A stretch of 60,227 bases of DNA, filler included, from 9 parts of 9 records of this genome joined end to end with filler, not necessarily neighbours in it; one strand, 5' to 3'; positions 7,639-55,241 are shown, counted from the first letter of the whole stretch. Numbers and translations: made by a program. Notes: generated by a model from the sequence alone, not told the origin.

Positions 7639-7646
7639 CACCATAA

Positions 7647-9934: not shown

Positions 9935-9993
9935 ATTCGTAAGAAGCATTTGCTGCGCTCATGAGGCGTTTGTGTATGAGGAGGACAGCACCA

Positions 9994-11181
9994 ATGAGAA
10001 AAAAACTGAAAAGTAATGTTTATTGGGTCGGCAAGGTCGACTGGGAATTGCAGAGATTCCACGGAAATGAGTACTCCACGCATAACGGTTCAACGTATAA
10101 TTCCTATTTGATACAAGAAGAGAAAACCGTATTGATCGATTCGGTTTGGGCACCATACGCAGACGAATTCGTCAAGAACCTGAGTGATGAGATTGATTTA
10201 TCTGCCATTGATTATGTAATAGCAAATCATGGTGAAGTGGATCACAGCGGTGCACTTCCGGCGTTAATGAAGCATATACCCAATACGCCCGTTTATTGCA
10301 CAGCAAATGCCGTTAAATCACTGAAGGGGCAGTACCATCAGGATTGGGATTTCCATGTCATAAAAACAGGGGACAAGCTTGATATCGGCAACGGCAAGGA
10401 GCTTATATTTGTTGAGATGCCAATGCTCCATTGGCCAGACAGTATGGCGACCTATCTCACAAAAGACAATATACTGTTCAGTAACGATGCCTTCGGACAG
10501 CACATTGCGACAAATAGCTTATTTAATGATCTCGTTGATCAATGTGATTTAATGAACGAAGCGATGAAGTATTACGCTAATATTCTCACACCGTTCAGCA
10601 AGATATTGCAAAAGAAACTGGAAGAGGTCATTTCCTTTAACCTGCAGATTGATATGATCGCAACAAGTCATGGCGTCATCTGGCGTGATAACCCGATGCA
10701 GATTGTCGAAAAATACGCTCAATGGGCGAACGATTATCAGGAAAACCAGATCACGGTTGTTTATGACACAATGTGGAACGGCACCAGAGCCCTTGCCGAT
10801 AAGATAGCCGAAGGTATACGAGCAGCAGATCCAGATGTTGTGGTTAAGGTTTTTAATATCACGAAAACAGACGAAAACGACGTCATAACCGAGGTTTTTA
10901 AGTCAAAGACGATTGTCGTCGGCTCGCCCACAAACTCAAGAAGCATTTTGCATGCTCTCGCAGGCTTCATTCATTTGATAAAGGAACTTAAATTCCAGAA
11001 TAAGAAGGCTACCGCGTTCGGATGTTATGGCTGGAGCGGCGAAGCGGTTGGAGTTATAAACGGTATGCTCAAAGATGCTGGGTTTACAATTATAAACGAT
11101 GGCTTTAAAAGCCAATGGAATCCTGACGAGGAGGCAAAGCAACGCGCATTTGAATTTGGTAAAATAATTGCCGCTGAGTAA
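9994..11181 (+). CDS. fprA: Flavodiiron protein (FprA type; NO/O2 reductase)
   Basis: NHGEVDHSG, LHWPDS, SNDAFGQH, SHG diiron motifs; flavodoxin YDTMWNGT, FGCYGWSGEA; GAGGAGG RBS. Confidence 0.93.
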   Translation: MRKKLKSNVYWVGKVDWELQRFHGNEYSTHNGSTYNSYLIQEEKTVLIDSVWAPYADEFVKNLSDEIDLSAIDYVIANHGEVDHSGALPALMKHIPNTPVYCTANAVKSLKGQYHQDWDFHVIKTGDKLDIGNGKELIFVEMPMLHWPDSMATYLTKDNILFSNDAFGQHIATNSLFNDLVDQCDLMNEAMKYYANILTPFSKILQKKLEEVISFNLQIDMIATSHGVIWRDNPMQIVEKYAQWANDYQENQITVVYDTMWNGTRALADKIAEGIRAADPDVVVKVFNITKTDENDVITEVFKSKTIVVGSPTNSRSILHALAGFIHLIKELKFQNKKATAFGCYGWSGEAVGVINGMLKDAGFTIINDGFKSQWNPDEEAKQRAFEFGKIIAAE

Positions 11182-11226
11182 AATCGAAACTGACGATATC
11201 TATTGAATAATAATAAAAAATGAACA

Positions 11227-11264
11227 TCACCCCACCGGCGTGCGTTTTAATACCGGTGGGGTGA
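11227..11264. terminator. Inverted repeat between fprA and the RACo-like gene
   Basis: TCACCCCACCGG-N14-CCGGTGGGGTGA; no U tract on the plus strand. Confidence 0.45.
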
Positions 11265-11296
11265 AAAACTGATATTATCAAACAAAGGATCAAAAT

Positions 11297-12853: not shown

Positions 12854-12927
12854 TGCTATATTGTACTTGTAGGAAGTCGTCGTTTTACTGCTGTTTATAT
12901 GCGCGTATATAAATGTTGGAGGCTTAT

Positions 12928-13092
12928 GTGAAAAAATACAGATGTGTTCCATGCGACTATATCTATGATCCGGCACATGGTGATCCTGAGGGTAATATTG
13001 ATCCCGGCACAGCGTTTGAGGATTTGCCGGACGATTGGGTTTGCCCTCTTTGCTACGTAGGTAAAGAAGAATTCGAACCTGTAGAAGAATAG
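12928..13092 (+). CDS. Rubredoxin (54 aa, below ORF-track cutoff)
   Basis: GTG start after [20 protein letters not shown]...[13 protein letters not shown]. Confidence 0.95.
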
Positions 13093-13107
13093 AAAAGGAG
13101 ACTAAAT

Positions 13108-13137
13108 ATGAGTATGTTTTGTTTTCAATGTCAGGAA
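13108..13137 (+). CDS. hcp: Hybrid cluster protein, first 10 codons only
   Basis: AAGGAG RBS; MSMFCFQCQE is the characteristic Hcp N-terminus. Confidence 0.8.
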
Positions 13138-13237
13138 NNNNNNNNNNNNNNNNNNNNNNNNNNNNNNNNNNNNNNNNNNNNTTAATTAATTAANNNNNNN
13201 NNNNNNNNNNNNNNNNNNNNNNNNNNNNNNNNNNNNN
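13138..13237. other. Artificial contig spacer
   Basis: N run with TTAATTAATTAA. Confidence 0.99.
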
Positions 13238-13245
13238 AGACCAAT

Positions 13246-13320
13246 TTAGAAAATCCGGTTGTTTTTTCGTAGATATTCCATAGGTGTCAGGTTGCCCAAA
13301 GACTCATGTGGTCTCTCTGA
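13246..13320 (-). mobile_element. IS3-family transposase C-terminal remnant
   Basis: SERPHESLGNLTPMEYLRKNNRIF*, the RPH.SLG..TP.EY motif. Confidence 0.75.
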
Positions 13321-13322
13321 CT

Positions 13323-13678
13323 TCAGTTAACGTATTGAATATATAGAAACTCAGGATGTTCGAATTGCCTGGTAATTCCCATGCTGACAGACAAGTCCAG
13401 AGGTCCAATAAATAAGACATCGATACCGTCGACAGAGACAATTTCTTCGATATTGCCCAGAGCCTCTACCGTTTCAATTTGGACAATGGTCAGGAGATTC
13501 TCATTTGCCAGGCGAAAATATTCATCGAAATTCTTTCCGGGGGATAGCGCATCGCCTTAGCAGCAAACCGAGCCTCTTCAGGCGTGTTCACATACGGTAC
13601 CATCACCCCAACCGCTCCAAGGTCGAGAACACGTTTAAAAAGCTATAGTTCATTCCATGCTATGCGAACCACTAAAAG
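13323..13678 (-). pseudogene. HpcH/HpaI aldolase family pseudogene fragment
   Basis: [37 protein letters not shown], frame change, then IVQIETVEALGNIEEIVSVDGIDVLFIGPLDLS; internal TAG and missing GxRG segment. Confidence 0.82.
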
Positions 13679-14308
13679 AATGTCACATTCTAGATTATCA
13701 AGAGATTTTATCTCTTTTGAAGTCAATTCTTTGGATCTTACGTTCTGCCTATGAATCATCAAAATTAAAACAATATTTAGAGTTAGAAGACCAAGGACGA
13801 TCAACGCATCACCCCATATGCCGAGACCAACTATTCCATGATAACCGTGAATCATTATTCTCTTTACTTGATCAGTTTGATAAGCAATCACTTATTGAGA
13901 TTCTGAATTGGAATTAACCAGAATTGTCTTCAAATAGGTCGTTTCTCTTATCCTTTAGGATGAGCGCCATAATTCTATCTGTTAATTCATATTGGGGCTG
14001 TTTGAGGTGAATCTTTTTCAATTCAGAAATTATGGGATTCTCCCCTGGGCTCAGTTTCTCCTCTTCATCGTTGCTAATTCCAGGTTAAAAACCGTTTTCA
14101 GGATCATGCATGTGCTAGCCCTCTATCGAGTAGAAATAACCAATGATCTGCAAGAGTGAGAATTCAGTAACTCCTTAACGTTCCACTTACTCCACCACCC
14201 CCTCCCGATGGCCTTGCCCCTTCAGGTCTCTTCATAGAGAAATTCAACAGCTCTGTGATTTGGGCAAGCTGGTCATCATTAAGAAAATCACCAACCTGCT
14301 CTATCGTT

Positions 14309-31663: not shown

Positions 31664-32101
31664 TCATTCCACCCGTTTTTCAAGCATCAACTTGTTCCCG
31701 GTTTCATTATACCAATAGCGTGAGAAATACTGCTCCATGATCATGAGCCCTCGTCCATGATCTTCATCATCCCCAACCTCTACAACCTGAGCACTTCGCC
31801 AATCAAACCCCTCGCCTTGATCTTCAATCTCCACCAAAATAACCTGCTCTTTTTCAATTCTTACATTGCAAATTACCTGTTTGTCGATATCATGATTATT
31901 TCCGTGGCGGACGGCATTGGTCAACCCCTCCCGCAGGACAAGCTGAATGGAAAAAAGATGCTTTGTAATCCCCTGGATCCGACGCTTCAATGTGCCGCAA
32001 ATTTCATCACACGCCCTGTCGACATTTCCCATACTTGAGCTGAAAACAATAGAAATATCTTCCTGACTCTTTTTTATTTCAAATCGACCTTTATCCGGCA
32101 T
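31664..32101 (-). CDS. RsbW-like anti-sigma factor / Ser kinase
   Basis: EGLTNAVRHGN, EDQGEGFD, HGRGL, YNETGN. Confidence 0.88.
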   Translation of the reverse strand: MPDKGRFEIKKSQEDISIVFSSSMGNVDRACDEICGTLKRRIQGITKHLFSIQLVLREGLTNAVRHGNNHDIDKQVICNVRIEKEQVILVEIEDQGEGFDWRSAQVVEVGDDEDHGRGLMIMEQYFSRYWYNETGNKLMLEKRVE

Positions 32102-32103
32102 GA

Positions 32104-33225
32104 TCACACCTCCAGGCAAAGCACGACAATGTCATCATCGGGAAGGTTGTCTTCTCCAAAATGATGCGCCACCAGTCTTGCCGGTGCCTCGGTCACCGGA
32201 TAGTGTTTCACTTCGGAAAAATCCGAAAGGAAACGGGCCGCTCCGGAAACCCATGTAATGTTATCTTCCGCTGACTCTACCAACCCGTCACTGTATAGAA
32301 AGATGCGGTCTCCCTTTGCCACATCGATTCTGGAGATACCGAACCGCGCATCCTTGAACATCCCCAAAACATCACCATCCGATCGGATCAATTTGGGCGT
32401 GCCATCCAATGGAACATGAACCACCGGCGGATGCCCTGCGTTGATGACCGTCACTTTGGAGGTGATTCGATTCAACCGAACATAGACTGCAGTGAGATAT
32501 TTTCCATCCGGTAAAATCTCCACCAGCACATCGTTGATCATCTTCATACTCTCTGCCGGTGAATAAACCGGTGTGCAATTCTGAGCAAGAAGCGCCTTGA
32601 CCGATGCCGTCATGTAGCTGGTTTTAATGTCGTGCCCGGAAAAATCCGCCACAAAATAGCCTTTGATATACTGAGAGATATTGAGAATATCATAGAAGTC
32701 TCCGCCGGCTTCCTGCAACGCCTGATAGTAGACCCCGAAATCGGCATCGGGAAAATCTTCCGGAAGCGGCAGCATGGATTCCTGAGCTTCCGCAATTTGT
32801 TTGAGTTTATGGGCCTGTTCGGCAATGAGAGAGTTGGTGGCAATGGAGAGTTTTAAGTGAATCCGAACCCTGGCGATCACTTCCAATTTATGAAACGGCT
32901 TTGTGATGTAATCCACCGCCCCCAAATCAAACCCTTTGAGTTTGGAATTCACTTCACTGACACCGGTGAGAAAGATAACAGGAATTGTTGCGGTTTCCTG
33001 GGTATCTTTCAAGAATTGAATCACTGCAAATCCATCTTCACCCGGCATTTGAATATCCAATAGAATGAGGTCGGGTTGCTCTTTGACTGCAAGCGCTCTC
33101 CCCCGCGGACCATCCGAGGCGCACAACACCCGATAGCCCTCCTTGGAAAGGGCTTTTTCAATCAACTTCAAATTCATTGGATGATCATCCACGGCCAATA
33201 TTGTAAATGATTGCTCCATATTCAT
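32104..33225 (-). CDS. Response regulator with SpoIIE/PP2C phosphatase domain
   Basis: REC N-terminus; GGDFYD, ADFSGH, NAGHPP, YSDGL, DDI. Confidence 0.92.
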   Translation of the reverse strand: MNMEQSFTILAVDDHPMNLKLIEKALSKEGYRVLCASDGPRGRALAVKEQPDLILLDIQMPGEDGFAVIQFLKDTQETATIPVIFLTGVSEVNSKLKGFDLGAVDYITKPFHKLEVIARVRIHLKLSIATNSLIAEQAHKLKQIAEAQESMLPLPEDFPDADFGVYYQALQEAGGDFYDILNISQYIKGYFVADFSGHDIKTSYMTASVKALLAQNCTPVYSPAESMKMINDVLVEILPDGKYLTAVYVRLNRITSKVTVINAGHPPVVHVPLDGTPKLIRSDGDVLGMFKDARFGISRIDVAKGDRIFLYSDGLVESAEDNITWVSGAARFLSDFSEVKHYPVTEAPARLVAHHFGEDNLPDDDIVVLCLEV

Positions 33226-33414: not shown

Positions 33415-33515
33415 TTAGTGGTGATTTTATGTGGTGCGTGGGACGCGTATAATAATAGAACTCGGTGAAAAATCAAGTCTGATTGTTTTATCGGGTTTGA
33501 GATTACTCGGTGGCC

Positions 33516-35855
33516 CTACGCATCCTCTGTTTCATTCACCCGTTTCCAGATCGGGCCGTTGGCGGTGTCTATCACCGCGATGCCGCGCTCGGCCAGCTCG
33601 CTGCGGGCAGAGTCCGCCGTGTTCCAGTCTTTCTCTACCCTGGCCTTTTCGCGGAGCTGGATGAGCGCATCGATCTCCGGCTCCAGCGGGCAGCCCTCGA
33701 GCTTGAAGATTTTCAGCACCTGGTTAATCGTGCGCAGTTTTTCAATGATGTAGTCTTTCTGGTCACGGTCGAGGTGGTTGACCTGCAGGATCGGGTTCAC
33801 CTTCTTGATGAAGGTATAGATCGAGGCCATCGCGAGCGACACGTTGAGATCGTCGTCCATTGCGGTGAAGAACCGCTCTTCCATTGTCGACACATAGGCC
33901 GTCACTTCAGGGTGAGGCCGCCCCGGAGGCAGACACAGGAGCTTGCTCGTGAATTCGTCGAGCCGCCTGAGTGCGGTGCGGACGTTCTCGAGCCGCTTGA
34001 TGGAGAAGAGAACCGGCTTGCGATACTGGACCGAGAGCAGCAGAAAGCGCACTTCGCGACCGGTGAAACCCATGGCAAGCAGATCCTTGAGGGTCACGAC
34101 GTTGTCGTTCTCGCTGCTCATTTTCTTGCCGTCGACGAGCAGCAGCTCCGAATGCATCCAGTAGCGGGCAAGCGGCTTGCCGGTGAGCGACTCAGCGATG
34201 GCGATCTCGTTTTCATGATGCGGGAACATCAGGTCGCGGCTGGACGTATGGATATCCAAGGTCTCCCCCAGATAGCCGGTGGACATCGCAGAACACTCGA
34301 TATGCCAGCTCGGCCGCACGTTGCCCCAGTCCGTCTCGAAGAAGATGCCCTTCTTCAACTCGGCAAGCGTCGAGCGCTTGAGCAACGTAAAATCGCGGGG
34401 ATTGTCTTTTTCGTAGTCGTCGAGATCGACGGTCTTGCCAACCTGAATCTTGGAGAGATCGATACCGGAGAGCCGGCCATAGTTTTCAAACTTCGAGATA
34501 TCGAAATAGACCGAACCGTGTTTCTCGTACGCGTAGCCTTTATGTACCAGCTTGTGGCTGATTTCGATCATGTCCTGGACGTGCTCGGACGCTCGCGGGT
34601 AGCCGGTGGCATCCCGTACCCCGAGGGTGTGGATGTCGGAAAGAAACGAGTTGATGTACTGCTCCGTGAACGGCCCCAGCTCCATCCCGGCTTCCTCGGC
34701 ACCGCTTATCGTGTTGTCGTCAAGGTCAGTGAAATTCATGTAGGAGTTGACCGTGTAACCGCGCGACTCAAGGTAGCGCACGATGAGATCGGCAACGACG
34801 AACCGGCGGCACAGCGACAGATTTGCCGGCTCATAGGCGGTGGGTCCACAGGAGTAGAAGGTGACCTCCCCCTCCTTCTGGGACCTGAACACCTCCTTTT
34901 TCTTCGTCATTGTATTGAAAAAGCGGAGCCTCGACTTCTTTCCGCCACCGGTCGTCTCTTCCTGGGCAAACAACGGAGTGCTCAGGTAACGCTCTCCGCC
35001 GTCGGGCAGGATCGCGACCACCATCCCCTCTTCAAGCTCACGGGCATAGTCGAGTGCCGTGCACATGGCCGCGCCGCTACTCATCCCGACCAGCAGCCCT
35101 TCCTTCCGTGCCAGCTGCCGTGCCGTGTCGAAGGAGCGGTCGTCATCGACCTTGACGATCTCGTCCGGAACCGACTTATCGAAAATGCCCGGCTTATAGG
35201 ACTCCTTCATGTTCTTGAGCCCCTGCAGTTTGTGACCGAGATGCGGCTCCACCGCAATCACCCTCACGTGCGGCTGGAACTCGCTGAACCACGCGCACAG
35301 CCCCATGATGGTGCCGGAAGTACCGAGTGTCGCCACGAGGTGGGTGATTTTTCCGTCCGTCTGCTCCCAGATCTCCGGGGCCGTCTGGTGGTAGTGGGCC
35401 TGCCAGTTAGCGTCGTTGTTGTACTGGTCGGTCAGATAGTAGCGCTCCGGGAACTCGCGCACCAGCGAGTAAGCCTTCTCGATGGCGCCGTCCGTCGCCC
35501 GTGCCGCCGGGGTGAGCAGGATCTCCGCGCCGTAAGCCTGCATAATCCTGCGCCGCTCGATGGACGCCGATTCAGGCATTACCAGCATGCAGCGATACCC
35601 TTTGGCGGCGCACACCATCGCGAGACCGATCCCGGTGTTGCCGCTGGTTGCCTCAAGAACGATACTGTCTTTGTTCAGCTCGCCAGAACGTTCGCCGGCC
35701 TCGATCATCGACAGGGAAATGCGCTCCTTCACCGATCCGCCCGGATTACGTGACTCCAGCTTGCCGATCACCGTCACCTTCGAGTTGGTGTTGAGGCGGT
35801 TGATCGTTATCAGCGGGGTGTTGCCTATGGAATCGAGAACATCTTTATATATCAT
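33516..35855 (-). CDS. Fusion: PLP cysteine synthase (CysM/CysK-like) + cysteinyl-tRNA synthetase-like domain with degenerate ATP motifs
   Basis: NPGGSVKER, EATSGNTG, GTSGT; short linker; CGPT, DFTLLK, WHIECSAM, FPHHENE, anticodon domain; single uninterrupted 779-aa ORF. Confidence 0.92.
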   Translation of the reverse strand: MIYKDVLDSIGNTPLITINRLNTNSKVTVIGKLESRNPGGSVKERISLSMIEAGERSGELNKDSIVLEATSGNTGIGLAMVCAAKGYRCMLVMPESASIERRRIMQAYGAEILLTPAARATDGAIEKAYSLVREFPERYYLTDQYNNDANWQAHYHQTAPEIWEQTDGKITHLVATLGTSGTIMGLCAWFSEFQPHVRVIAVEPHLGHKLQGLKNMKESYKPGIFDKSVPDEIVKVDDDRSFDTARQLARKEGLLVGMSSGAAMCTALDYARELEEGMVVAILPDGGERYLSTPLFAQEETTGGGKKSRLRFFNTMTKKKEVFRSQKEGEVTFYSCGPTAYEPANLSLCRRFVVADLIVRYLESRGYTVNSYMNFTDLDDNTISGAEEAGMELGPFTEQYINSFLSDIHTLGVRDATGYPRASEHVQDMIEISHKLVHKGYAYEKHGSVYFDISKFENYGRLSGIDLSKIQVGKTVDLDDYEKDNPRDFTLLKRSTLAELKKGIFFETDWGNVRPSWHIECSAMSTGYLGETLDIHTSSRDLMFPHHENEIAIAESLTGKPLARYWMHSELLLVDGKKMSSENDNVVTLKDLLAMGFTGREVRFLLLSVQYRKPVLFSIKRLENVRTALRRLDEFTSKLLCLPPGRPHPEVTAYVSTMEERFFTAMDDDLNVSLAMASIYTFIKKVNPILQVNHLDRDQKDYIIEKLRTINQVLKIFKLEGCPLEPEIDALIQLREKARVEKDWNTADSARSELAERGIAVIDTANGPIWKRVNETEDA

Positions 35856-36605: not shown

Positions 36606-37933
36606 TTAGTAGATGCTCAGGTAATTATCGAGCTCCCACTCCGTTACTGCGCAGCGGTAATCGTCCCACTCGGCCTGCTTCAGCTCGATGTACTTCTCGA
36701 AGATGTGCGGTCCGAGGGTATCCTCTGCGATCGGGTTGGCCTTGAGTTCCTCGACAGCTTCAGCGAGGCTGCCGGGCAGGACGGTAATACCAGCCTCGTC
36801 CATTTCCTGGGCGGTCATCTCGAAGATGTCCTCGTCAACCGAATCCGGTACCGGAAGATCGTTCTTGATGCCGTCAAGACCGGAGTTAAGCATCAACGCC
36901 AGCGCCAGATAGGGGTTCGTGCTTGGATCCGGACAGCGGACCTCGGTACGGGTGGACATGCCGCGGGCAGCCGGGATACGAACCAGTGCGGAGCGGTTGG
37001 AAGCCGACCATGCCGCATAAACCGGAGCCTCATAACCGGGAACAAGGCGCTTGTAGGAGTTGACGAGCGGGTTCGTGACCGCTACAAATCCGCGAGCGTT
37101 CTTGAGGATACCTGCGATATACTGATAGGCGACCTTGGAAAGCTGGAGCTTGTCGGACTCGTCGAAAAATGCGTTAGTGCCGTCAAGGTTGAACAGGGAC
37201 TGGTTGGTGTGCATACCGGAACCGTTGATGCCGAAAATCGGTTTGGGCATGAAGGTCGCGTGCAGGCCGTACCTTGCAGCGATAGACTTGACAACCCACT
37301 TGAAGGTGATGGTGTTGTCCGCGCATTCCAGTGCATCGGCGTACTTGAAGTTGATCTCGTGCTGCCCCTCGGCCACCTCATGATGGGAAGCTTCGATCTC
37401 GTAGCCCATGCTCTCCAGGGTTTCGATGATCTCGCGGCGGCAGTCGTTTGCCATGTCGTCGGGGTCGGTGCTGAAGTAACCGGCAACGTCCTGAGTGATG
37501 GTGGTCGGCATGCCGTCTTCGTCTTTTTCGAACAGGAAGAACTCGGCCTCGGTGCCGACATTCATCGTGTAGCCCATTTCTTTGGCTTCCGCAAGAACGC
37601 GCTTGAGATTAACCCTCGGGCATCCCTCGAACGGAGTACCGTCACTCTTGTGGATGTCGCAGATGATACGGGCGGCGGCAATCCCTTCTTGTTCCTCCAG
37701 GGCAGGACAACAAAGGTATCATAGTCCGGCTTCAGGTACATATCCGACTCGTTGATACGTACAAACCCGTCGATGGAAGAGCCGTCGAACATCATCTTGC
37801 CATCGAGTGCTTTTTCAAGCTGGCTGCGCGGAATCGCGACGTTTTTCTGGAAACCGCAGATATCGACGAACTGAAGGCGGAAAAAGTGAATGTTTTCCTC
37901 TTCTACAATTTTTAATATTTCATCTCTAGTCAT
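36606..37933 (-). CDS. glnA: Glutamine synthetase type I (alpha-like), frameshift near 37690
   Basis: [58 protein letters not shown]; one added base joins the two ORFs. Confidence 0.93.
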
Positions 37934-39607: not shown

Positions 39608-39707
39608 NNNNNNNNNNNNNNNNNNNNNNNNNNNNNNNNNNNNNNNNNNNNTTAATTAATTAANNNNNNNNNNNNNNNNNNNNNNNNNNNNNNNNNNNNN
39701 NNNNNNN
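39608..39707. other. Artificial contig spacer
   Basis: N run with TTAATTAATTAA. Confidence 0.99.
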
Positions 39708-40304
39708 ATTCGCAATAGCATAGGTTGTCAGCATCAGTGACAATCCCAGGAGAATCCCCGGAATATAACCGGCCAGAAACAGCTTTCCTATGGACAGTCC
39801 CCCTGCGGCAAGCGAGTAATAAATCATGTTCTGGGATGGGGGGATGATAACTCCCTGAACGGATGAGGTCACTGTTACGGCGACGCTGTAATCCTTGTCA
39901 TACCCTTCGTTTTCCATGGCGGGGATCAGAAAGGAGCCGACTGATGAAACATCTGCTACGGATGATCCGGAGATTCCTCCGAAGAACATGCTTGTGACGA
40001 CATTGACCATTGCTGTTCCGCCTCGTATCCGTCCAACCAGAACATTGGCAAAACTCATCAATTTATCACTGATCCCGCCTTCGATCATAATCTGCGCAGC
40101 CAGGATAAAAAACGGTACGGCGAGAAATGTAAAACTGTCCAGACCGTTTACCATCTTCTGAAAGATGAAGAGCAGAGGAATATCAAGGTAGAGGGAGGTG
40201 ATAACAGAAGTCAGGGCCAGAGAAAAAGCGATAGGAACTCTGAAAAACATCAGAAGAGCCAGAACTCCGAACAGAATGATTATTCCATTGACATCAACTA
40301 TCAT
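39708..40304 (-). CDS. dctM: TRAP transporter large permease, 3' truncated
   Basis: LAVPFFILA, FFGGISGSSVAD, IIPPS. Confidence 0.93.
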
Positions 40305-47364: not shown

Positions 47365-48420
47365 TTAAAGGTAACGTTTCTCGAATTCAGCTCTCACAAA
47401 TTCGCTTTCTCGTAACAGATTTAGTGTATATTCGGCATGGTCTTTACCATATCCGTTACCAATTACCATATTAACATCTTTTCCGATTCCTTCTGCACCC
47501 AAAGCCGCTTTTGTAAAACTTGTTGCCATCGAGAAAAAGTATACAATTCCGCCATCTTTGCACGGAAGAATCGAACCCATCTCACAATCGGGTACGTTTA
47601 CACAGTTTATAACGACATCACAAAGCTGTCCATCTGTTACATCTTCTATTTTTTTCTGTAAATCCACAGGATTGCTTGCAGAGCCAAGAATGACTTCATC
47701 AACAAAAGGCGCATCATGAAGAACTTCAATACCTTTTTCCCTTGGTTTGATACCAATAACTTTGCCAGAAACACCGGCTCGTTTTTTGGCTTCATATGCA
47801 CATAACAAACCGGATTTACCGGCGGCACCGATTATTGCCACAGTATCACCGGGTTTGACCATTCTGGCAGTCTGGAGTGGCGCACCGGCAACATCCAAAA
47901 CAGCCAAGGCCAGCTTTTCCGGAATATCGTTTTCATCTGGCAATTTGGCATATATTCCACTTTCAAACAGAATAGCTTCAGCATTGACATCTACCTGATC
48001 TTTATCTTTATGCACTTCAAGGATTTCGTGAATTTTCAAAGGTGTAAGCGATAAAGAAACCAAAGAAGCAATTCGATCACCTTCTTTCAAATCAATTTTG
48101 TCCTTTATTTTTTCACCGAGTTTCTTTACACTTCCAACAAACATTCCTCCGGAACCTGTGACTGGATTTTTGTGTTTACCAAAGCGATCAATGATGTCAA
48201 ACATGATCTTTTTGATCTCTTCGATATCTCCATTTGCCTGTTCTTTTATCTGAGTAAAACTTGCAGCATCGACATTGAGCGTTCTCACATCGCAAAAAAT
48301 CTCATTGTCGTATAACATATTGAAATCATTACTGATTTTTTCGGCTGGTTGTGGTAAAGATCCGACAGGTTCAATAACTCTATGACAGCCGTAACGATCA
48401 CCTTTTAACTGCTTTGACAT
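47365..48420 (-). CDS. kdd: L-erythro-3,5-diaminohexanoate dehydrogenase
   Basis: YGCHRVIEP.GSLPQPA, NPVTGSGGM, SLVSLSLTPL, LDVAGAP, FFSMATSF. Confidence 0.92.
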   Translation of the reverse strand: MSKQLKGDRYGCHRVIEPVGSLPQPAEKISNDFNMLYDNEIFCDVRTLNVDAASFTQIKEQANGDIEEIKKIMFDIIDRFGKHKNPVTGSGGMFVGSVKKLGEKIKDKIDLKEGDRIASLVSLSLTPLKIHEILEVHKDKDQVDVNAEAILFESGIYAKLPDENDIPEKLALAVLDVAGAPLQTARMVKPGDTVAIIGAAGKSGLLCAYEAKKRAGVSGKVIGIKPREKGIEVLHDAPFVDEVILGSASNPVDLQKKIEDVTDGQLCDVVINCVNVPDCEMGSILPCKDGGIVYFFSMATSFTKAALGAEGIGKDVNMVIGNGYGKDHAEYTLNLLRESEFVRAEFEKRYL

Positions 48421-48699
48421 TTTTCGCTCCTTTAGCTAACAAACCATTTTCAATTACCAAACAGTCTCATATCTGGGATGAAACATAATAGCAAAAAAGG
48501 GTCAAGGAAATTCGTAATTAATCCGAATAGTTATTTAAGACTATTAAATCAATTTGTAATTATTTCATGGACTTGATGTAATAGTTTTAATATAATTAAA
48601 AGAATTATAGGGAAGCGAATTAACGCAAATACATCGTTTTAATGGATATTGGATTCTGTTTTATACTTGATTGTATAACCATCCAATCAGGGGGTTTTT

Positions 48700-50634
48700 A
48701 TGTTAAGTAAGATAAGTACCAAAATTATTCTGGCCTTTATCGTTGTAGTCACCTTGGTGGGTATGATAATTGGCTATATCTCATCTTCAAAACTGACTGA
48801 TTCCGGTGAAAAGTCAATTTCTGATTTTAGAAAAGAATCAGAAGCATCGGCTGAAACACGCTTGAAAAACCTGGTTGAATCTGCCGTTGCAATGGTTAAT
48901 GCCAAAGCTAAGCTGGTTTCAAAAGATGAAGGCTTGACAGGATTAACGGAAGAAGAAGCACAAAAACAGGCTAAAGAGCTTGTAGCCAGCATGAGATATG
49001 ATGGAGGGAAAGGATATTTTTGGATTCAATCCTTTAATCAGTCGAATCCCAGAGAAGTAACAATGATTATGCATCCAACTGTACCCAAATTAAATGGAAA
49101 GGACATCTCTGGTTATAGATATAGCAGCGGAGAAAAATCAGGACAGGTCGTTGTAGCAACATCCTATATGAAAGATGGTGAGCTAGTAAAAGATGAAAAC
49201 AATATTCCATTTTTCGTCAAAATGAATGAAGTTGTAGCTTCCTCCGGGCAAGGTGTGGTCGGATATGAATGGCCGAAACCAAGTTCAGGTGGACTCACTG
49301 AACATCGTCCTAAATGGAGCTATGTACAACTTTTCTCGAAATGGAATTGGGTAATTGGATCTGGCATTTATGTAGATGATATTGACGAAGCTGTTAATGT
49401 AAAAACAGAAGAAATGGATGAGTTTATGTCAGACACTCGTTCTTCTGTAATGCTCTGGATTATCATACTCATCGTCGTTTTCGCAGTTTTCGGTGTCTTT
49501 ATTGGACAATGGTTAAAAAGAAAAATCAATACTGTTACCGAAAGAATGGATGATATTTCCAAAGGAGAAGGAGATCTTACTGTAAGGCTGGAAATCAACG
49601 GCAAAGACGAAATGGCAATGCTATCCACTAGCTTTAATCTTTTCGTAGATAAACTTCAAGGATCAATCGGTACTGTCGCCGGTGAAACCTCCAACCTCTC
49701 GGAAAGCACAGAACAGGTAGCAAACGCAACAAATACCCTTGCCGTTTATCTCGAAGAAATGAGCGCACAGTCTACTGAGGTTGCTAAAAATTCAACTAAA
49801 GTGGCAGACAACGTAGGGAACGTAAATCAGGCAGCAGAAGGCATGTCACAAAGCGTAAATACAATTGCCGCAGCTTCCGAAGAAATGTCATCAAACGTTG
49901 AAACTGTTGCCACTGCAATAGAAGAATTAACTTCTTCTTTACAAGAAGTTTCCAAAAATACCGTTCGAGCAGCGCAAATTGCTGATGAGGTTTCACAAAA
50001 CGCGGTTCAAACCACAGAAGTTATGCAGGAACTCGATAAGGCTTCAACAGAAATCGGCAAAGTACTTGTTTTGATTAGTGATATTGCCGATCAGACAAAC
50101 CTGCTTGCATTAAATGCTACAATCGAAGCGGCAAGCGCCGGTGAAGCTGGTAAAGGTTTTGCTGTTGTCGCAAACGAAGTTAAAGAACTCGCCAAACAAA
50201 CGGCACAGGCAACCGGTGAAATTTCCCAGCAAATCGAGGATATGCAGAACAGAACGGAACAAGCGGTTTCAGCAATCCACAAGGTAAATGATATTACAGG
50301 AGAAATTTACAGCATCACAAACACAATCGCTACAGCCGTTGAAGAACAAACAGCTACGACCAATGAAATTGCACGATCTGTCACAGGTGCTGCAACCGGA
50401 GCTAACGAAGTATCCAAGAGTGTTCAGGATTTAAGCCAAAACATCGAGGATATTGTCGTTGTAGGTACAAGAGAAGCATCGACCAGAATTACGGAAGTTT
50501 CCGGTGCCATTACTGAAGTCGATACGGCAATCAAGGAAACAACCGTCACAGTTTCAGATAGCTCACAGGCAATTGACAGATTGAATGAACTTGCGCAAAA
50601 ATTGGATGCGGTTGTCCAGCAATTTAAGTATTAG
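48700..50634 (+). CDS. Methyl-accepting chemotaxis protein (single Cache sensor, HAMP)
   Basis: [61 protein letters not shown]. Confidence 0.95.
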
Positions 50635-52932
50635 TTATTTGACTTTGTAAAAGCTCAGATTAAGTCTATCCGGGTAAAAAGCAAAGTTTCTATAATCAAG
50701 ACCAAAAAGCCTGCTATCGTAGTCAATCGAAGAAACTACCTTGGCAGGCTTTTTCATTTTACAATCAAGCTCATTTATTTCGTTGCAGTCAAGTGAATGA
50801 TAAAAATACATACATTTATCACCTAGCTCAAATTGTTTTAGTACAGGATCGAGATTTGACAGCTTTTCAACCTTGAAATGTATTGGCTTTTTGACAGGCA
50901 AGCCAAAAACGGTAAAACCAAATGTAGTCGGTGAAAACTTCAAACTGAACTCATCTTCATGAGCAACAATCGGATTCATACCTTTGGTTTTTGTCACAAA
51001 TACGCATTCGGGATTTTTATCCACCATTTGATACAAATATCGAACTTCTATTTGCGGATTGCGTGTCAAGGCAATTGAACTAATGTTGAACATATCTGAC
51101 GAATCAGGATGATATTCATAACCTCTTGGATTTAGCTGATTTGTTGTCAATGGAATAAACGACAATAAAACCAGTAATATCAATATTTTACCATAATTAG
51201 ATTCTTTGTATGAAAGTACTTTTTTAAATCCAATTACAATGAAAAAAGCAGCAATCGGCATTGCGTAGGAAAGCAGGCGGAAATAAAAAACAAAGTCATT
51301 TCGTCCGGCTGTACTGTATAAAATCATAAGCGCAATAAAAGTAACAGGCAGAGCCATGTGCTTGAATTTGCTAGAAAAAGTAACGAACAAACCAATAGGC
51401 AAAAGAATAAACCATCCTATCGAACAAAATGTAAAAAGCTGCCCCAAAATATCCAGGCCGAAAATATCAAAACTTTCAAGAATCCAGATGAGTTTCGATT
51501 GAATTTCAGTATGCTCCAACTGCTTTCTTAAAGTGTGCATTATCAACAAGATTCCGATTACAGTCGCACCAAAAACAAGTGGATTTATCTTGCGAAAAAC
51601 AGTGATAATTTTATTGTAAAAGTATGTCATTTTTGTGTAGTCTTTTTGCCATACCTTGAGCGATAACATGGTCACTGGTAAGGCAACGACAAGCATAAAT
51701 TCTACTCGCACACTTACAAGAATTATCGCCCCAAAGACGATAATCAACCAATGCAAAAGTCCGGAAATATTCTTGTTTTCTTGTTTGAAAAAGGAACTAA
51801 ATACTAACACACCAATTAAAAAGATCAATGATATCAATTGTGTAGGAACTTCTGAAATTGCAGTGATTGTAAAAGCCGGATTTGTTATCCAGACCAACGT
51901 AATAAAAATTGCAGGTAAAATAGAACGTATAATTTTCAAAGAAACCACAAAAAATAAAATTGAATTCAGTCCGGTGAGCCAGATATTTGTTTTGACTATC
52001 GGCAAAATCGAAACAGCGTTTTCTCCGGCAAAAATTGACATAAAAGAGTAAAATCCGCTGCCAGTATGAACTCCCCTGCCATATAAATGCATGATATTAT
52101 TGAATGTTGAGCCATCTTGTAAAATCGTCACAAGCCCGATAGGAACAGACAAAAAGAATAAGCAGAATCCGCTCCAGCCAATCATTGCAAGAGTTGAAAA
52201 ACATATTGATTTTCGAGAGTTATTGCGGGAAAGAAATATTAAAAAAGTTTGTATTATCAGCAAGATAGCAAAAACCAGAAACACTGCGTAGAAAAGTTTT
52301 TGTCTTGTTGTCTCATCTGAAAATGAATCAGATAAATAGAAGCCGGAAAAATAATCCGCGCCTAGCATCAAAATTAAAATAGAAATAGCAAACAGGATTA
52401 TTCGATTATCGCCGAATCGCTTGCTAAATAGAACTTTTATCCATTGCAAAAACACAAAAACAATGAGAGCAATTATCAAAGATAAAGCAAGAGACATCAA
52501 ATAATTCGGATTTTGCTGCTTGTATTTTGCAAAAGGGATGCGCTGGGCGGCTACTTCGTTTTGCTTGACGAATTCAAGCACGCTGAAAAGTAGCGATCTC
52601 GGTGGATTTTCATTTGGTGCAGGTTGTATTCTGTAGTACTTGCTCGACCAAATATCGTTGTCTTTTTTACTAGTAATTTCAAGTACATAGCTTGATGTAG
52701 CATCACTAAATTCAACGTGCAAATACTCTGAATGTGGCTTGATCGAAACGACCTTCCAATTATCATCAAGTTGCAAATTTTCACTAAAAAGCTGACCAGT
52801 TTCAGCATAAGCAATGCTAGTGGATGTCCCGATGAGGTACATAAAAAGCACTAAAAAAGACCAACAAATGACCAAGAAATTCCTGCCAATTTTATGCGAT
52901 TTCGAGCTGTTCATTTTTGTAAAACCAATCAA
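50635..52932 (-). CDS. Large polytopic membrane protein, possibly GT-C-like; function unknown
   Basis: More than 12 hydrophobic segments, extracytoplasmic N- and C-terminal domains, C-terminal cysteines. Confidence 0.7.
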   Translation of the reverse strand: MIGFTKMNSSKSHKIGRNFLVICWSFLVLFMYLIGTSTSIAYAETGQLFSENLQLDDNWKVVSIKPHSEYLHVEFSDATSSYVLEITSKKDNDIWSSKYYRIQPAPNENPPRSLLFSVLEFVKQNEVAAQRIPFAKYKQQNPNYLMSLALSLIIALIVFVFLQWIKVLFSKRFGDNRIILFAISILILMLGADYFSGFYLSDSFSDETTRQKLFYAVFLVFAILLIIQTFLIFLSRNNSRKSICFSTLAMIGWSGFCLFFLSVPIGLVTILQDGSTFNNIMHLYGRGVHTGSGFYSFMSIFAGENAVSILPIVKTNIWLTGLNSILFFVVSLKIIRSILPAIFITLVWITNPAFTITAISEVPTQLISLIFLIGVLVFSSFFKQENKNISGLLHWLIIVFGAIILVSVRVEFMLVVALPVTMLSLKVWQKDYTKMTYFYNKIITVFRKINPLVFGATVIGILLIMHTLRKQLEHTEIQSKLIWILESFDIFGLDILGQLFTFCSIGWFILLPIGLFVTFSSKFKHMALPVTFIALMILYSTAGRNDFVFYFRLLSYAMPIAAFFIVIGFKKVLSYKESNYGKILILLVLLSFIPLTTNQLNPRGYEYHPDSSDMFNISSIALTRNPQIEVRYLYQMVDKNPECVFVTKTKGMNPIVAHEDEFSLKFSPTTFGFTVFGLPVKKPIHFKVEKLSNLDPVLKQFELGDKCMYFYHSLDCNEINELDCKMKKPAKVVSSIDYDSRLFGLDYRNFAFYPDRLNLSFYKVK

Positions 52933-53136
52933 CTTTTAGAGACTTTTAAGTTTCCGTTTCCATCATCATAATTTGTAAAAACAAAAGATCAAAACAAATA
53001 GTCGTTCAAGCTGTAATTTTGTTAAGCTCAATAATTATCACACCAAGTTTTTCTTGCCTTTGACGTACTGCATCGTTTATGCTACCACGTCTTATAGTGA
53101 GTATGTTTACTTATGGAAATTAATTGGGAGACACCG

Positions 53137-53880
53137 ATGGGCAAGACATATGACCCTGCGATAGTTGAGAAAAAATGGCGTGAAATTTGGGAAAAACGTG
53201 GTGATTACACCATCGATATGGAGAACGCTCCAAACCCTTATTACAATCTTATGATGTTCCCCTATCCTTCCGCAGAGGGTCTACACGTCGGTAATTGCTT
53301 CGCATTTATCGGTTCGGATATCTTCGGGCGATATATGAAACTAAAGGGACATACCGTTTTCGAGCCAATGGGATTTGATGCGTTTGGAATTCATTCTGAA
53401 AACTTCGCCCTAAAAATCGGTAAACATCCAGCAAAGCTGACTGCGGACAATGTAGAAAACTTCCGTGAAAACCAGCTTAAAAAGCTTGGAAATATGTTCG
53501 ACTGGTCACACTCACTAGACACAACCAAAGAAGATTACTACAAATGGACACAGTGGATTTTCCTGCAACTTTACAAAAACGGCTTGGCAGAGCGTAGAAC
53601 CGCTCCTGTAAACTGGTGCCCGGAATGCAAAACAGTTCTCGCCGATTCGCAAGTGGAAAACGGATACTGTGAACGCCATTCTGATGTAAAAGTTGAACAG
53701 CGTGAACTTTCACAATGGTTTTTCCTGATTACAAAATATGCAGAAAAGCTATTAAATAATCTTGATGTAATCGACTGGCCGGAAGTCGTTACTCGTGTTC
53801 AGCGAGAAAAAATCGGTCGTAGCGTTGGTGCGCATGTCGATTTCAAGCTGGAAGATGAAACCGAATTTACAGTCTTTACA
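53137..53880 (+). CDS. leuS: Leucyl-tRNA synthetase, 3' truncated
   Basis: MFPYPSAEGLHVGN, PMGFDAFG, YYKWTQW, VNWCP; start may be 53113. Confidence 0.95.
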
Positions 53881-53980
53881 NNNNNNNNNNNNNNNNNNNN
53901 NNNNNNNNNNNNNNNNNNNNNNNNTTAATTAATTAANNNNNNNNNNNNNNNNNNNNNNNNNNNNNNNNNNNNNNNNNNNN
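53881..53980. other. Artificial contig spacer
   Basis: N run with TTAATTAATTAA. Confidence 0.99.
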
Positions 53981-55241
53981 TGCGGATGATGGTGTTATGC
54001 CTCAGACCAAGGAAGCGATCAACCACTCCAAGGCTGCAGGCGTTCCGATCATTGTCGCTGTGAACAAGATCGATAAACCGGATTCAAGTCCGGATCGTGT
54101 CAAGCAGGAGCTGACGGAGTTTGAGCTGGTCCCTGAAGAGTGGGGTGGTGATACGATTTTTGTCGAGGTCTCTGCAAAACAGCACACCAACCTGGACACC
54201 CTTCTGGAAATGGTTCTTCTTCAGGCTGAAGTTCTTGAACTGCAGGCGAATCCGAGCAAGAGAGGCAGGGGCTCGATTGTCGAGGCGCGTCTTGACAAGG
54301 GGCGTGGTCCGGTCGCGACCGTTCTGGTTCAGGATGGCACTCTCAAGGTTGGTGATGCAATCGTTGCCGGGCTCCACTTTGGACGGGTCCGGTCGATGCT
54401 TACGGCAACCGGCAAACAGGTTAAAGAGGCTGGTCCCTCGTTCCCTGTCGAGGTGACAGGTCTGGGCGGTGTCCCGGATGCGGGTGAGACATTCCATGCA
54501 GTTGAAAGCGAAAAAGCGGCCAAGGAAGTTTCGCAGCACCGTCAATCCAAACAGCGTGAGATTGATCTCGCCAAGAGTAGTAAGGTTTCTCTTGACCAGC
54601 TGTTTGCGAAAATGCAGGAGGGTGTCGTTGAGGAACTGGCTGTCATTATCAAGGCGGATGTTCAGGGCTCTGTTGAGGCTGTCCGTGATGCCCTTGAAAA
54701 GCTGTCGACCGATTCCTGTCGCCTGAACGTCATTCATACGGGTGTTGGCGGAGTCTCCGAAAGTGATGTCACGCTGGCCACCGCTTCGAACGCGATCGTG
54801 CTCGGATTTAATGTCCGACCTGAGAATAAGGCTAAAATCCTGGCTGAAACCGAAAAAGTTGATATCCGTCTGTACAGTGTTATTTATGATGCTGTTAACG
54901 ATATCCGCGACGCGATGGAAGGCCTGCTGGCACCGACCCTTAAAGAGAAAGATCTCGGTCGGGTTGAGGTGCGTGAAACATTCCATGTGTCACGTGTTGG
55001 AACCATTGCCGGTTGTTATGTGCTAGACGGAAAGATCCTGCGTAACGCTCAAACGCGACTGGTACGTGACAATGTCGTTATCTGGGAGGGCAAGCTCAAC
55101 TCGCTGAAGCGCTTCAAGGATGATGTTAAAGAGGTCAACAGCGGCTATGAGTGTGGTATCGGTCTGGAGAACTATAATGACATCAAGGTCGGTGACATTA
55201 TCGAAGCCTATGAAATGGAAGAGATCAAGACGGCTCTCTAG
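53981..55241 (+). CDS. infB: Translation initiation factor IF-2, 5' truncated
   Basis: [36 protein letters not shown]. Confidence 0.97.

Follow-up and report, generated by a model that had tools for sequence, protein, structure and literature searches.

A CysM-type cysteine synthase fused to a cysteinyl-tRNA synthetase-like body with degenerate ATP-side motifs: a candidate tRNA-Cys/cysteine-binding module

The stretch of DNA analysed here (the window; 60,227 nucleotides, filler included, joined from 9 parts of 9 records of one genome) carries at 33516..35855, on its minus strand, a gene of 779 codons plus stop with an ATG start, and all features located below lie within it on the same strand. 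Its product joins a cysteine synthase domain of the CysM (OASS-B) type (residues 1-298; 34962..35855) through the linker EETTGGGKKSR (residues 299-309; 34929..34961), none of whose 11 columns is conserved and which is predicted to be flexible, to a cysteinyl-tRNA synthetase (CysRS)-like body (residues 310-779; 33519..34928) with a Rossmann fold, a connective polypeptide (CP) domain, an SC fold, and helical and C-terminal anticodon-binding domains. Pfam places PALP at residues 7-285 (E 1.8e-71), the CysRS catalytic domain (tRNA-synt_1e) at 324-625 (E 4e-86), DALR_2 at 661-718 and CysS_C at 724-764. Among NCBIfam models, the protein passes the cut-offs of cysS (TIGR00435; 393.4 bits vs 340, model positions 1-465 covered) and cysKM (TIGR01136; 362.3 bits vs 344.15), stays below that of the cysM equivalog (TIGR01138; 353.1 bits vs 394.2) and far below that of the MshC model (180 bits vs 485). 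The first-pass annotation of this DNA had read the 779-residue frame as an intact-looking PLP-dependent synthase joined by a short linker to a full-length CysRS, and both the frame and this architecture are upheld by Pfam, NCBIfam and the alignments. The nucleotide coordinates of NLSL, KMSSE, SVKER, TSGNT, GTSGT and the linker were re-translated and all match. More than 100 full-length relatives share homology at E = 0, so chance likeness is of no concern.

Judged from its residues, the N-terminal half is an O-acetylserine sulfhydrylase of the CysM type with its catalytic apparatus intact. The PLP-binding lysine K43 lies in SVKER (35721..35735), which aligns with svKdr of a solved cysteine synthase; the TSGNT substrate (asparagine) loop (35634..35648) is identical to that of solved cysteine synthases; and the glycine-rich loop for the PLP phosphate, GTSGT (35310..35324), and the serine of SSGAA also align with the solved enzymes. 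All of these, including S71, G72, N73 and T74 of the substrate loop, are invariant in 36 fusions (alignment row L026, with a stop codon, was left out of the invariance counts), across which 125 of the 298 columns of the domain are at least 90% conserved. Residues 150-298 are best matched by CysM structures (gap-free, E 1.5e-34). The domain thus resembles CysM/OASS-B (2JC3, 2BHS, 2BHT, 2V03) in its PLP lysine, TSGNT loop, glycine loop and SSGAA motif and in the gap-free alignment of its C-terminal half, whereas it differs in its sub-threshold cysM equivalog score and in the C-terminal CysRS-like body of 480 residues that follows it.

The CysRS-like body was aligned residue by residue with the solved CysRS chains 8qhp, 3tqo and E. 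coli 1li5. HIGH is replaced by NLSL (34812..34823), KMSKS by KMSSE (34110..34124), DIHGGG by DIHTSS (in DIHTSS...FPHHENE, 34206..34256), RPGWH by RPSWH (in RPSWHIEC, 34293..34316) and DDKII by DDNTI, and the KIIK and KMSK lysine sites of CysRS read NTIS and KMSS. Retained are the cysteine of CGPT (C336, E. coli C28; 34839..34850, which also holds the G29 equivalent), the cysteine of HIEC (C521, E. coli C209), and the histidine and last glutamate of FPHHENE (H546 and E550). In NFTDLDDNTISG (34701..34736) the T68 equivalent, T376, is kept and the KIIK lysines are replaced, and RPSWHIEC contains W517, the W205 equivalent, so that the cysteine pocket (G29, T68 and W205 equivalents) is present in the window protein. 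At the C-terminus, the pattern R735-x3-R-x4-W-x3-D748-x2-R751 ... D763 (33567..33653) aligns through R735, R739, W744, D748, R751 and D763 with the 1li5 row; we take these to be base-contacting residues of a C-terminal domain that reads GCA. The equivalents of C28, W205, C209, H234 and E238, counted along the 1li5 row, are presumably the Zn/cysteine-site residues of CysRS. For C28 and C209 this is supported by PMC5660078. All substitutions listed in the first-pass annotation, the intact Zn-ligand positions and the anticodon-domain pattern are confirmed by these alignments.

This division between lost and kept residues extends through the fusion family. A canonical HIGH (H-x-G-H/N) or KMSKS occurs in 0/29 fusions vs 54/54 stand-alone CysRS, the second KMSKS lysine in 2/29 vs 53/54, and the DIHGGG glycines G538 and G539 in 4/29 and 5/29 fusions; the residues at the HIGH and KMSKS positions differ freely between orthologs. 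On the other side, all four Zn ligands (C336, C521, H546, E550) are present in 29/29 fusions, T376 in 27/29 and W517 in 25/29. R735, D748, R751 and D763 are found in 29/29, and they remain invariant in 36 fusions that include degenerate members, making the anticodon-domain residues the second best preserved feature family-wide. Stand-alone CysRS share 88 nearly invariant columns, of which the fusions keep 56, keep 20 in part and lose 12. Among the lost columns are the second KMSKS lysine, G538/G539 and one position of HIGH, whose other two conserved positions are retained only in part. A new invariant residue, R351 (R350-R351, 34803..34808), adjoins the former HIGH helix, at a position that reads T/A/S in 52/54 and P in 1/54 stand-alone enzymes among the rows listed. 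At the level of sequence, these counts show that the three ATP-side motifs (HIGH, the DIHGGG glycine pair and KMSKS) have been freed from constraint and that the Zn/cysteine pocket and anticodon-domain residues are strongly conserved; the selective loss proposed for a single protein is a property of the whole family. With canonical CysRS (CysS, EC 6.1.1.16; TIGR00435; 1LI5/1U0B, 8QHP, 3TQO) the fusion shares the complete order of domains, the Zn ligands, the W205 and T68 equivalents and the anticodon-domain residues, and it is 34-44% identical to stand-alone enzymes; it differs in its degenerate ATP-side motifs, its permanent attachment to a cysteine synthase and a remodelled CP domain that carries an insertion and new invariant residues.

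Degeneracy of the ATP-side motifs is a trait of this family and not decay, as the alignments and substitution rates indicate. Comparison with six relatives, at dS near saturation, gives dN/dS values of 0.05-0.11 across the synthase, catalytic and anticodon parts; those of the CysRS parts (0.05-0.09) are no higher than that of the synthase half. Full length is kept in 28/29 fusion loci from two phyla. Decay into a pseudogene is ruled out by both observations, and with it the possibility that homologs are canonical and this copy alone is eroding. In a phylogenetic tree, a fully supported branch (100%) sets the 34 bacterial fusions apart, showing a single origin of the bacterial fusions, and their CysRS half forms a clade separate from their hosts' own CysRS. 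In the basal member P0122 the motifs are still HLGN and KMSRS, so the ancestor of the fusions was probably active. At the other extreme, the very degenerate members P0127, P0128 and P0130, of a kind not foreseen in the first-pass annotation, have lost the Zn ligands too, and retain the synthase, the CP signature and the anticodon-domain residues. With the intermediate P0122, a shift of constraint to the CP domain and late forms without the amino-acid pocket, the family displays a synthetase becoming something else step by step.

Within the CysRS half of the fusions, conservation is highest in the CP domain (residues 440-519; 34299..34538) and not in the Zn pocket, a result that the first-pass annotation had not anticipated. 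In canonical CysRS this domain handles the acceptor arm. Its columns conserved at 90% or more number 39/80 in fusions vs 25/80 in stand-alone CysRS, while conserved columns of the C-terminal Rossmann half number 19/47 vs 28/47; 19/38 invariant columns of the CysRS half fall within it, and its identity is still 50-51% when the most degenerate members are compared. It contains a family signature, DFTLLKRSTLAELKKG (residues 488-503; 34347..34394), which includes an insertion absent from stand-alone CysRS. As read from these comparisons, the catalytic core of the fusions has lost constraint and a remodelled CP domain has gained it. Structure prediction returns both halves with confidence (mean pLDDT 84.9) around a disordered linker region (residues 291-308, pLDDT <50). 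Docking of the two halves is predicted with weak support, at a score of 0.45 vs 0.00 for the best control; the docking mark is reached by 58/80 solved complexes and 2/110 mismatches, and scores of 0.60 or under account for only 7 of those 80 complexes and for both mismatches. The docking runs share at least 89% of their contacts, with a partner pLDDT of at least 86. Because the whole-fusion prediction has a pTM of 0.57 and docking support is weak, the mutual arrangement of the modelled domains is uncertain.

The surroundings of the gene are conserved within orders, as glnD-like, glnA, dciA and fusion in Desulfobulbales, and as surE, an HD/OB protein, tmk, fusion and a 330-aa protein in Desulfobacterales. 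No sulfur, tRNA or mobile genes occur among the neighbours, which are housekeeping genes and thus give no functional hint. Neither Rfam matches, the 116-base leader included, nor tRNA genes were found in the window. In the full-text literature (main texts) no description of a CysM-CysRS fusion was found, and the sulfate-reducer annotations mentioned in the first pass do exist, with relatives named cysteine--tRNA ligase. This label misnames a protein whose ATP site is unconstrained, and in genome reconstructions it can hide a missing housekeeping cysS.

The loss of ATP motifs from a gene that is so strongly preserved probably points to tRNA-Cys/cysteine binding rather than ordinary charging. 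We therefore favour, at about an even chance, a reading of the CysRS half as a non-charging tRNA-Cys/cysteine-binding module that tunes, or is tuned by, the fused synthase. In the corresponding model, the gene product would be a neofunctionalised two-part protein whose CysRS half has abandoned the activation of cysteine by ATP. It would recognise tRNA-Cys through its GCA-reading C-terminal domain and, in the window's clade, bind cysteine through the Zn site, and the CP domain would couple this half mechanically to the synthase domain. In this way the amount of uncharged tRNA-Cys available, free cysteine or both would adjust cysteine synthesis by the CysM domain.

Such a sensor is plausible, and its logic would resemble that of HisZ with HisG and of the HisRS-like domain of GCN2. 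The latter belongs to a eukaryotic kinase that binds tRNAs broadly, and it is believed to sense uncharged tRNA and to switch its partner domain. Like the CysRS half, it is a degenerate synthetase domain joined to a catalytic domain, whereas the fusion keeps tRNA-Cys-specific residues and has a metabolic enzyme as partner. HisZ, like the CysRS half, is a synthetase paralog without catalytic motifs joined to the cognate biosynthetic enzyme; it lacks the anticodon-binding domain that the fusion keeps, and it is a separate subunit at the first pathway step, whereas the fusion is covalent and joined to the last. In PMC9437257, HisZ is described as a non-charging HisRS paralog that serves as regulatory subunit of the ATP phosphoribosyltransferase HisG and can in principle bind the amino acid of its own pathway, a property that the fusion would share. 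MshC and CysRS* of Desulfobacterales are, as the fusion, diverged CysRS copies beside a housekeeping enzyme, but they are ATP-using ligases and CysRS* is, according to that source, without an anticodon domain, whereas the fusion keeps this domain and loses the ATP motifs. A CysRS body is also linked with PLP chemistry on cysteine in the persulfide synthase activity of CysRS/CARS (CPERS), which needs PLP at K73, K76, K266 and K269 (PMC5660078). The fusion keeps the equivalent of K266 only and has its PLP in a separate fold-type II domain; since these lysines of KIIK and KMSK are otherwise not kept, a persulfide-synthase role of the CysRS half was rejected. If the sensor reading is true, a bacterial metabolic enzyme would be gated by the state of its cognate tRNA, and this in organisms living on sulfur chemistry. 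To our knowledge, gating of this kind is known from HisZ and GCN2 and is undescribed for cysteine or for a fused bacterial enzyme.

The CysRS half might instead be a working CysRS with a rewired ATP site, within a bifunctional protein that makes cysteine and loads it on tRNA-Cys and that would be the sole CysRS where cysS is absent. We regard this as unlikely, though a serious alternative. It accords with a score above the NCBI cysS cut-off and with an intact cysteine pocket, Zn ligands and anticodon domain; P0122 indicates a probably active ancestor, and the invariant R351 beside the HIGH helix could compensate. Loss of KMSKS is moreover no proof of inactivity, as E. coli CysRS with the KMSKS lysines changed to alanine (K266A/K269A) still supported cell-free protein synthesis, according to PMC5660078. 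However, if ATP were bound, one would not expect HIGH and KMSKS to vary freely among close orthologs or the glycine pair to be gone, and some relatives have lost even the Zn ligands.

The distribution of canonical cysS bears on the same question from both sides, its absences weighing against the favoured reading. A second, canonical cysS is present in 4/5 genomes first tested and is the best match in 108/121 genomes of the order (requested completeness at least 90%), 95 of which have at least two matches. It was not found in 10/121 genomes of this set, even at E 1e-15, where the control gene argS was missed in 1/121, nor in 10/13 genomes of the genus nearest the window or in 6/24 other fusion-bearing genomes; in G010 the canonical cysS is broken over three frames. 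Should one or more of these absences prove genuine, either the fusion must charge tRNA-Cys in the genomes concerned or another route exists, and SepRS (TIGR00470) was found in 0/10 genomes (two sets of five; controls matched). Against this, the ATP-side motifs are equally degenerate in genomes with and without detected canonical cysS, and genomes with Mb-scale contigs, including G001, G002 and the closed G076, whose fusion is 83% identical to the window protein, carry cysS, with G101 as the exception. In 6/6 window-clade assemblies with a locatable flank the contig ends at the cysS block or inside cysS, and none of these six has an intact junction without cysS; a second, degraded copy of the block in one relative is a plausible cause of the breaks. 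A hand count gives only a weak trend, contigs starting within 2.5 kb of canonical cysS in 21/109 listed matches vs 13/121 for argS. Other flank searches are silent on cysS deletion: the flanking MFS, Memo-like, 197-aa and DUF748 proteins were not found in G101 and G003, nor DUF748 in G151, nor DUF748 and the 197-aa protein in G152, and the farther flank shows no synteny. Pfam Memo matches are paralogs only (25-34% identity), and their rows were left out of the flank evidence; a 17-kb DNA query was swamped by a ~85-base repeat, with 40 of 50-112 candidates scored per genome (101 candidates in G101). The objection that the fusion may be the only CysRS of its hosts thus fails for most genomes of the order, including the closed one, and may stand for the 10/13 nearest-genus genomes in which no canonical cysS was found. 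It appears distinctly doubtful that certain Desulfobulbales lineages, perhaps that of the window among them, have no CysRS other than the fusion, and that it charges there without HIGH or KMSKS using cysteine made by its CysM domain. This would be the first demonstrated case of a class I synthetase that functions with neither signature, with the synthesis of an amino acid coupled directly to tRNA charging in one polypeptide, and a working CysRS of this kind would mean revising the textbook view that class I enzymes require their signature motifs.

It is quite improbable that the CysRS half uses charged Cys-tRNA-Cys as substrate or ligand and transfers, modifies or protects the tRNA-borne cysteine. 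Cyclodipeptide synthases are class I synthetase-like enzymes without ATP motifs, and similarly, Cys-tRNA-Cys would here be used without an ATP site. Retention of the amino-acid pocket and tRNA-reading domain with loss of the ATP site, and the remodelling of the CP domain into a new, highly conserved form, agree with such a role, but no new conserved nucleophile appears among the fusion-specific residues, genes for an acceptor substrate were not found nearby, and degenerate members lack the cysteine pocket.

An RNA-binding regulator, in which the anticodon domain binds tRNA-like mRNA elements and the synthase domain senses O-acetylserine or sulfide, is very unlikely. ThrRS binds a tRNA-like element in its own mRNA leader, regulatory moonlighting is known for CysK-type proteins, and family-wide the residues of the anticodon domain are well kept; however, the window, leader included, gave no RNA family match, a candidate operator was not found, and the synthase active site is fully conserved, as in a working enzyme.

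Scarcely credible is tRNA-dependent cysteine synthesis, in which the PLP domain would convert phosphoserine or acetylserine esterified to tRNA-Cys on the CysRS half. The fusion does juxtapose a beta-replacement enzyme and a tRNA-Cys binder, but SepRS was found in none of the ten genomes searched, we know of no enzyme that loads such a precursor on tRNA-Cys, the linker is short and the domain arrangement uncertain, and the TSGNT loop, which in cysteine synthases holds the free substrate carboxylate, is unchanged. The first-pass suggestion of a scaffold that offers precursor-charged tRNA-Cys to the PLP domain is accordingly not borne out. That the CysRS half is a decaying relic without a function of its own has a close to negligible chance in spite of its degenerate catalytic motifs, given its low dN/dS, the 56/88 canonical invariant columns kept, full length in nearly all loci of two phyla and the rise of new invariant residues.

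Outside the bacterial family, P0125 of Nanoarchaeota (768 aa; source name cysteine--tRNA ligase) has the same domain order and a similar length. It is the lone fusion with canonical motifs (HIGN, DIHTGG, KMSKS) and, unlike the window family, has a canonical CP motif; it nests among stand-alone DPANN enzymes, which indicates an independent fusion event, and by its motifs it is probably truly bifunctional. As to other genes for cysteine metabolism in the genomes compared, a stand-alone cysK lies beside a cysE-like gene in 5/5 genomes, and a third CysRS paralog in G010 and G034, with HIGN and KMSKS and altered Zn ligands, may be CysRS*.

The gene at 33516..35855 on the minus strand is a single ORF of 779 codons, in which a PLP-dependent PALP domain (residues 7-285; Pfam E 1.8e-71) precedes a CysRS catalytic domain (residues 324-625; Pfam E 4e-86) with the Pfam domain DALR_2 and then the C-terminal anticodon domain of CysRS behind it. 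The protein belongs to the CysK/CysM family and exceeds two curated NCBIfam cut-offs, those of cysKM (362 vs 344) and cysS (393 vs 340). Its synthase half stays below the cysM equivalog cut-off of NCBI and is termed here CysM-type because the best structural matches of residues 150-298 are CysM proteins, with 146 residues aligned gap-free. According to the first-pass annotation, this half looks intact while the CysRS half has lost its ATP-binding motifs and kept its cysteine/zinc and anticodon residues, and alignment bears this out. The PLP lysine (SVKER), TSGNT, GTSGT and SSGAA are all present in the synthase, and alignment to solved CysRS chains verified each of the substitutions HIGH to NLSL, KMSKS to KMSSE, DIHGGG to DIHTSS, RPGWH to RPSWH and DDKII to DDNTI, as well as retention of the Cys in CGPT and in HIEC, of the His and final Glu in FPHHENE, and of the pattern R-x3-R-x4-W-x3-D-x2-R...D at the C-terminal end (all motif coordinates were checked by re-translation). 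Judged as a CysRS, the protein has the fold and the score and lacks two defining motifs, and plain cysteine--tRNA ligase is not the right label for it. An ORF of 747 aa lies antisense to the gene (33510-35753, plus strand) and is most likely not a gene but a shadow frame arising from G+C-rich coding sequence.

Selective loss of the ATP-side motifs is a family trait, as seen when 29 fusions (that of the window and 28 further loci) are compared with 54 stand-alone CysRS: H-x-G-H/N or KMSKS occurs in 0/29 fusions and in 54/54 stand-alone enzymes. The residues at the HIGH/KMSKS positions vary even among close orthologs (e.g., NLSL, NLSM, NLSH, NLAH, HLAH, TLDH and HLGE). Of 88 columns that are near-invariant in stand-alone CysRS, the fusions keep 56, partly keep 20 and have lost 12. 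The losses include one HIGH position (the remaining two conserved ones being only partly kept), both glycines after DIH, the second KMSKS lysine, three residues after HHENE, and five residues in or near the CP domain (T115, R168, W184, W194 and G201 in E. coli numbering, counted along the alignment row). Each of the four Zn ligands is retained in 29/29 fusions, as are R735, D748, R751 and D763. Other residues are invariant in the fusions only, namely R351, immediately after the old HIGH helix, and T475, P486, T490, R494, L497 (inserted), L500, K501 and G503 of the CP domain, which produce the fusion signature DFTLLKRxTLxELKxG.

Constraint has shifted from the catalytic core to the CP domain, which in the fusions is remodelled and highly constrained. 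This 80-residue domain holds 19 of the 38 columns that are invariant in the CysRS half across 36 aligned fusions. Columns conserved at 90% or more number 39/80 in the CP domain of fusions vs 25/80 in stand-alone CysRS, and conserved columns of the C-terminal Rossmann half 19/47 vs 28/47; as the two sets are unequal in breadth, only the change of rank among domains is meaningful. For the degenerate members, identity to the window protein is 50-51% over the CP region, falling to 31-37% over the C-terminal domain and 17-25% over the Rossmann parts. Compared with six relatives, the synthase, the catalytic part and the anticodon part all show dN/dS of 0.05-0.11 (dS near saturation), and mere decay is rejected; the CysRS half is hence strongly selected but not for the old ATP site.

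The word-indexed search returned at least 120 full-length relatives (775-808 aa, 73-92% identity) from Desulfofustis, Desulfocapsaceae, Desulfobulbaceae, Desulforhopalus and Desulfoprunum, labelled cysteine--tRNA ligase wherever a name exists. Species-representative genomes of Desulfobulbales, Desulfobacterales and two Planctomycetota contain 28 intact fusion loci and a broken one (L073), whose gene is spread across three frames at 8001-10266 in an uncultured deltaproteobacterial genome. More distant fusions came from an exhaustive search. One of them, P0122 (60% identity), retains HLGN and KMSRS and is a basal intermediate with near-canonical motifs. In four others (P0123, P0127, P0128 and P0130) Zn ligands are gone too, and even so P0127 (a Desulfovibrio ferrophilus protein named 'cysteine synthase'), P0128 and P0130 retain the CP-domain signature. 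In P0125, a Nanoarchaeota archaeon fusion, every motif is canonical. When the CysRS parts are arranged in a tree, a branch with 100% support sets the 34 bacterial fusions on one side, the hosts' own CysRS form a separate clade, and P0125 nests inside the stand-alone DPANN enzymes, which makes it an independent fusion; the bacterial fusions have a single origin. Ten Desulfobacterales loci (L016, 10311-11303, and nine others) encode, immediately after the fusion and in its orientation, a conserved protein of ~330 aa without any Pfam match.

The first-pass annotation had regarded a fusion that is its genome's only CysRS as evidence against a pseudo-synthetase, and on this point the result, which comes entirely from relatives' genomes, is mixed: a canonical cysS is also present in most genomes, whereas none is detectable in some. 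Four of five genomes encode one in addition to the fusion, scoring 451-591 bits vs 347-415 for the fusion, and all five have a stand-alone cysK adjoining a cysE-like gene. Both the fusion and canonical cysS are encoded on the single contig of 4,232,141 bases of genome G076, from a cultured relative, whose fusion is P0027 letter for letter (83% identity to the window protein). In the order, 108/121 genomes give a canonical-type best match, 95 of these with at least two matches; canonical cysS is broken or partial in three further genomes and was not found in 10/121 even at E 1e-15, and the argS control was missed in 1/121 only. Canonical cysS was found in only 3/13 genomes of the genus nearest the window, and was not found in 6/24 further fusion-bearing genomes or in about 25/151 genomes of the taxonomic family (hand count, without completeness filter). 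Fusions of genomes without a canonical cysS are no less degenerate. Genome G010 carries an intact fusion and a canonical cysS lying over three reading frames (C6:94436-95884; L110/L113/L114), either a pseudogene or a sequencing error.

Contig breaks bear on this excess of genomes without detectable cysS. In G155, G157, G076 and G001 the cysS block is syntenic: DUF748 and a 197-aa gene come first, then MFS transporter, cysS, Memo-like protein and tRNA-Gln(CTG). In the window's clade the contig ends at this block in 6/6 assemblies with a locatable flank: inside or just past DUF748 (G149, G153), at the 197-aa gene (G126), 1.7 kb beyond it (G148) or after the first 64 residues of cysS (G140), while in G150 the contig starts 190 bases ahead of tRNA-Gln. 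Searches for all four flank proteins found nothing in G101 or G003, and neither did those for DUF748 in G151 (the sole flank protein searched) or for DUF748 and the 197-aa protein in G152 (the two searched); these four genomes count neither for nor against a loss of cysS. An intact junction without cysS was seen in no assembly examined, and most absences are probably assembly gaps. Genome G156 has the MFS transporter-cysS-Memo-like block twice (C3:324598-328600 and C6:9537-13545), the C3 copy being degraded by frameshifts and a stop codon; such a duplication would break short-read assemblies. A repeat of ~85-135 bases (L125, 11357-11490), which G101 and G153 carry in dozens of copies and relatives in several, is a likely cause of fragmented assemblies.

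The fusions combine an intact CysM-type active site with unconstrained ATP motifs, a Zn/cysteine pocket conserved in the window's clade and anticodon-domain residues conserved family-wide. We infer that the CysRS body no longer makes Cys-AMP, that it binds tRNA-Cys and, in the window's clade, cysteine, and that its coupling to the synthase runs through the CP domain. By analogy, the fusion would putatively work most like a pseudo-synthetase of the HisZ or GCN2 type, and its logic is most likely that of HisZ/HisG and GCN2, in which a disabled synthetase would read the amino acid, its uncharged tRNA or both, and would set the activity of the attached enzyme accordingly. Two features distinguish the fusion from HisZ and GCN2 alike: it is joined covalently to the pathway's last enzyme, and it retains a tRNA-specific anticodon domain. 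AlphaFold2 folds both halves confidently (mean pLDDT 84.9), with a disordered linker (291-308) and an uncertain mutual arrangement of the halves (pTM 0.57). Docking weakly suggests that the halves could associate, scoring 0.45 vs 0.00 for the best control, on a mark reached by 58/80 solved complexes and 2/110 mismatches, of which just seven complexes and both mismatches reach it at 0.60 or under; contacts agree across runs by at least 89% and partner pLDDT is at least 86.

That the fusion is instead an unconventional but working CysRS seems unlikely, and is kept in consideration because, as PMC5660078 reports, an E. coli CysRS with both KMSKS lysines mutated to alanine still supports cell-free protein synthesis, because R351 could stand in for the lost positive charge, and because the basal P0122 has near-canonical motifs. 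The suggestion that a precursor-charged tRNA is passed to the PLP domain did not hold up, since no loader enzyme was found (SepRS in 0/10 genomes searched) and the TSGNT loop is unchanged. Either leading reading, if true, would be of interest to specialists.

Full-text literature searches turned up no description of the fusion in main texts, and the table of a 2022 review (PMC9437257) has CysRS* and MshC as the only CysRS paralogs. On its sequence, the fusion probably belongs with the pseudo-synthetases attached to metabolic enzymes. A third type of CysRS paralog, at L107 (G010:C3) and L108 (G034:C106), has HIGN/HLGN and KMSKS intact, altered Zn-site residues (WNIQD, RHHDYN) and nothing that matches the C-terminal anticodon domain; this type is possibly the CysRS* reported from Desulfobacterales. 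The G010 copy (L107) contains three TAA codons.

Elsewhere in the window, immediately downstream of the fusion (31664-33225, minus strand), a response-regulator/SpoIIE (PP2C) phosphatase and a HATPase_c_2 kinase-like protein of small size look like a partner-switching pair; other genomes show no synteny between these two and the fusion. Glutamine synthetase (36606-37933, minus strand) occupies two ORFs that overlap and differ in frame, with its N domain at 37562-37933 and its catalytic domain at 36606-37577; relatives have both parts in one frame, and the split reflects a frameshift that is either genuine or introduced by assembly. The TRAP transporter DctM ORF at 39660-40304 (minus strand; 214 aa, profile positions 1-191 of 413) looks truncated. 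The stretches 6000-14000 and 48000-54000, with 37-43% G+C vs 45-58% elsewhere in the window, may be islands.
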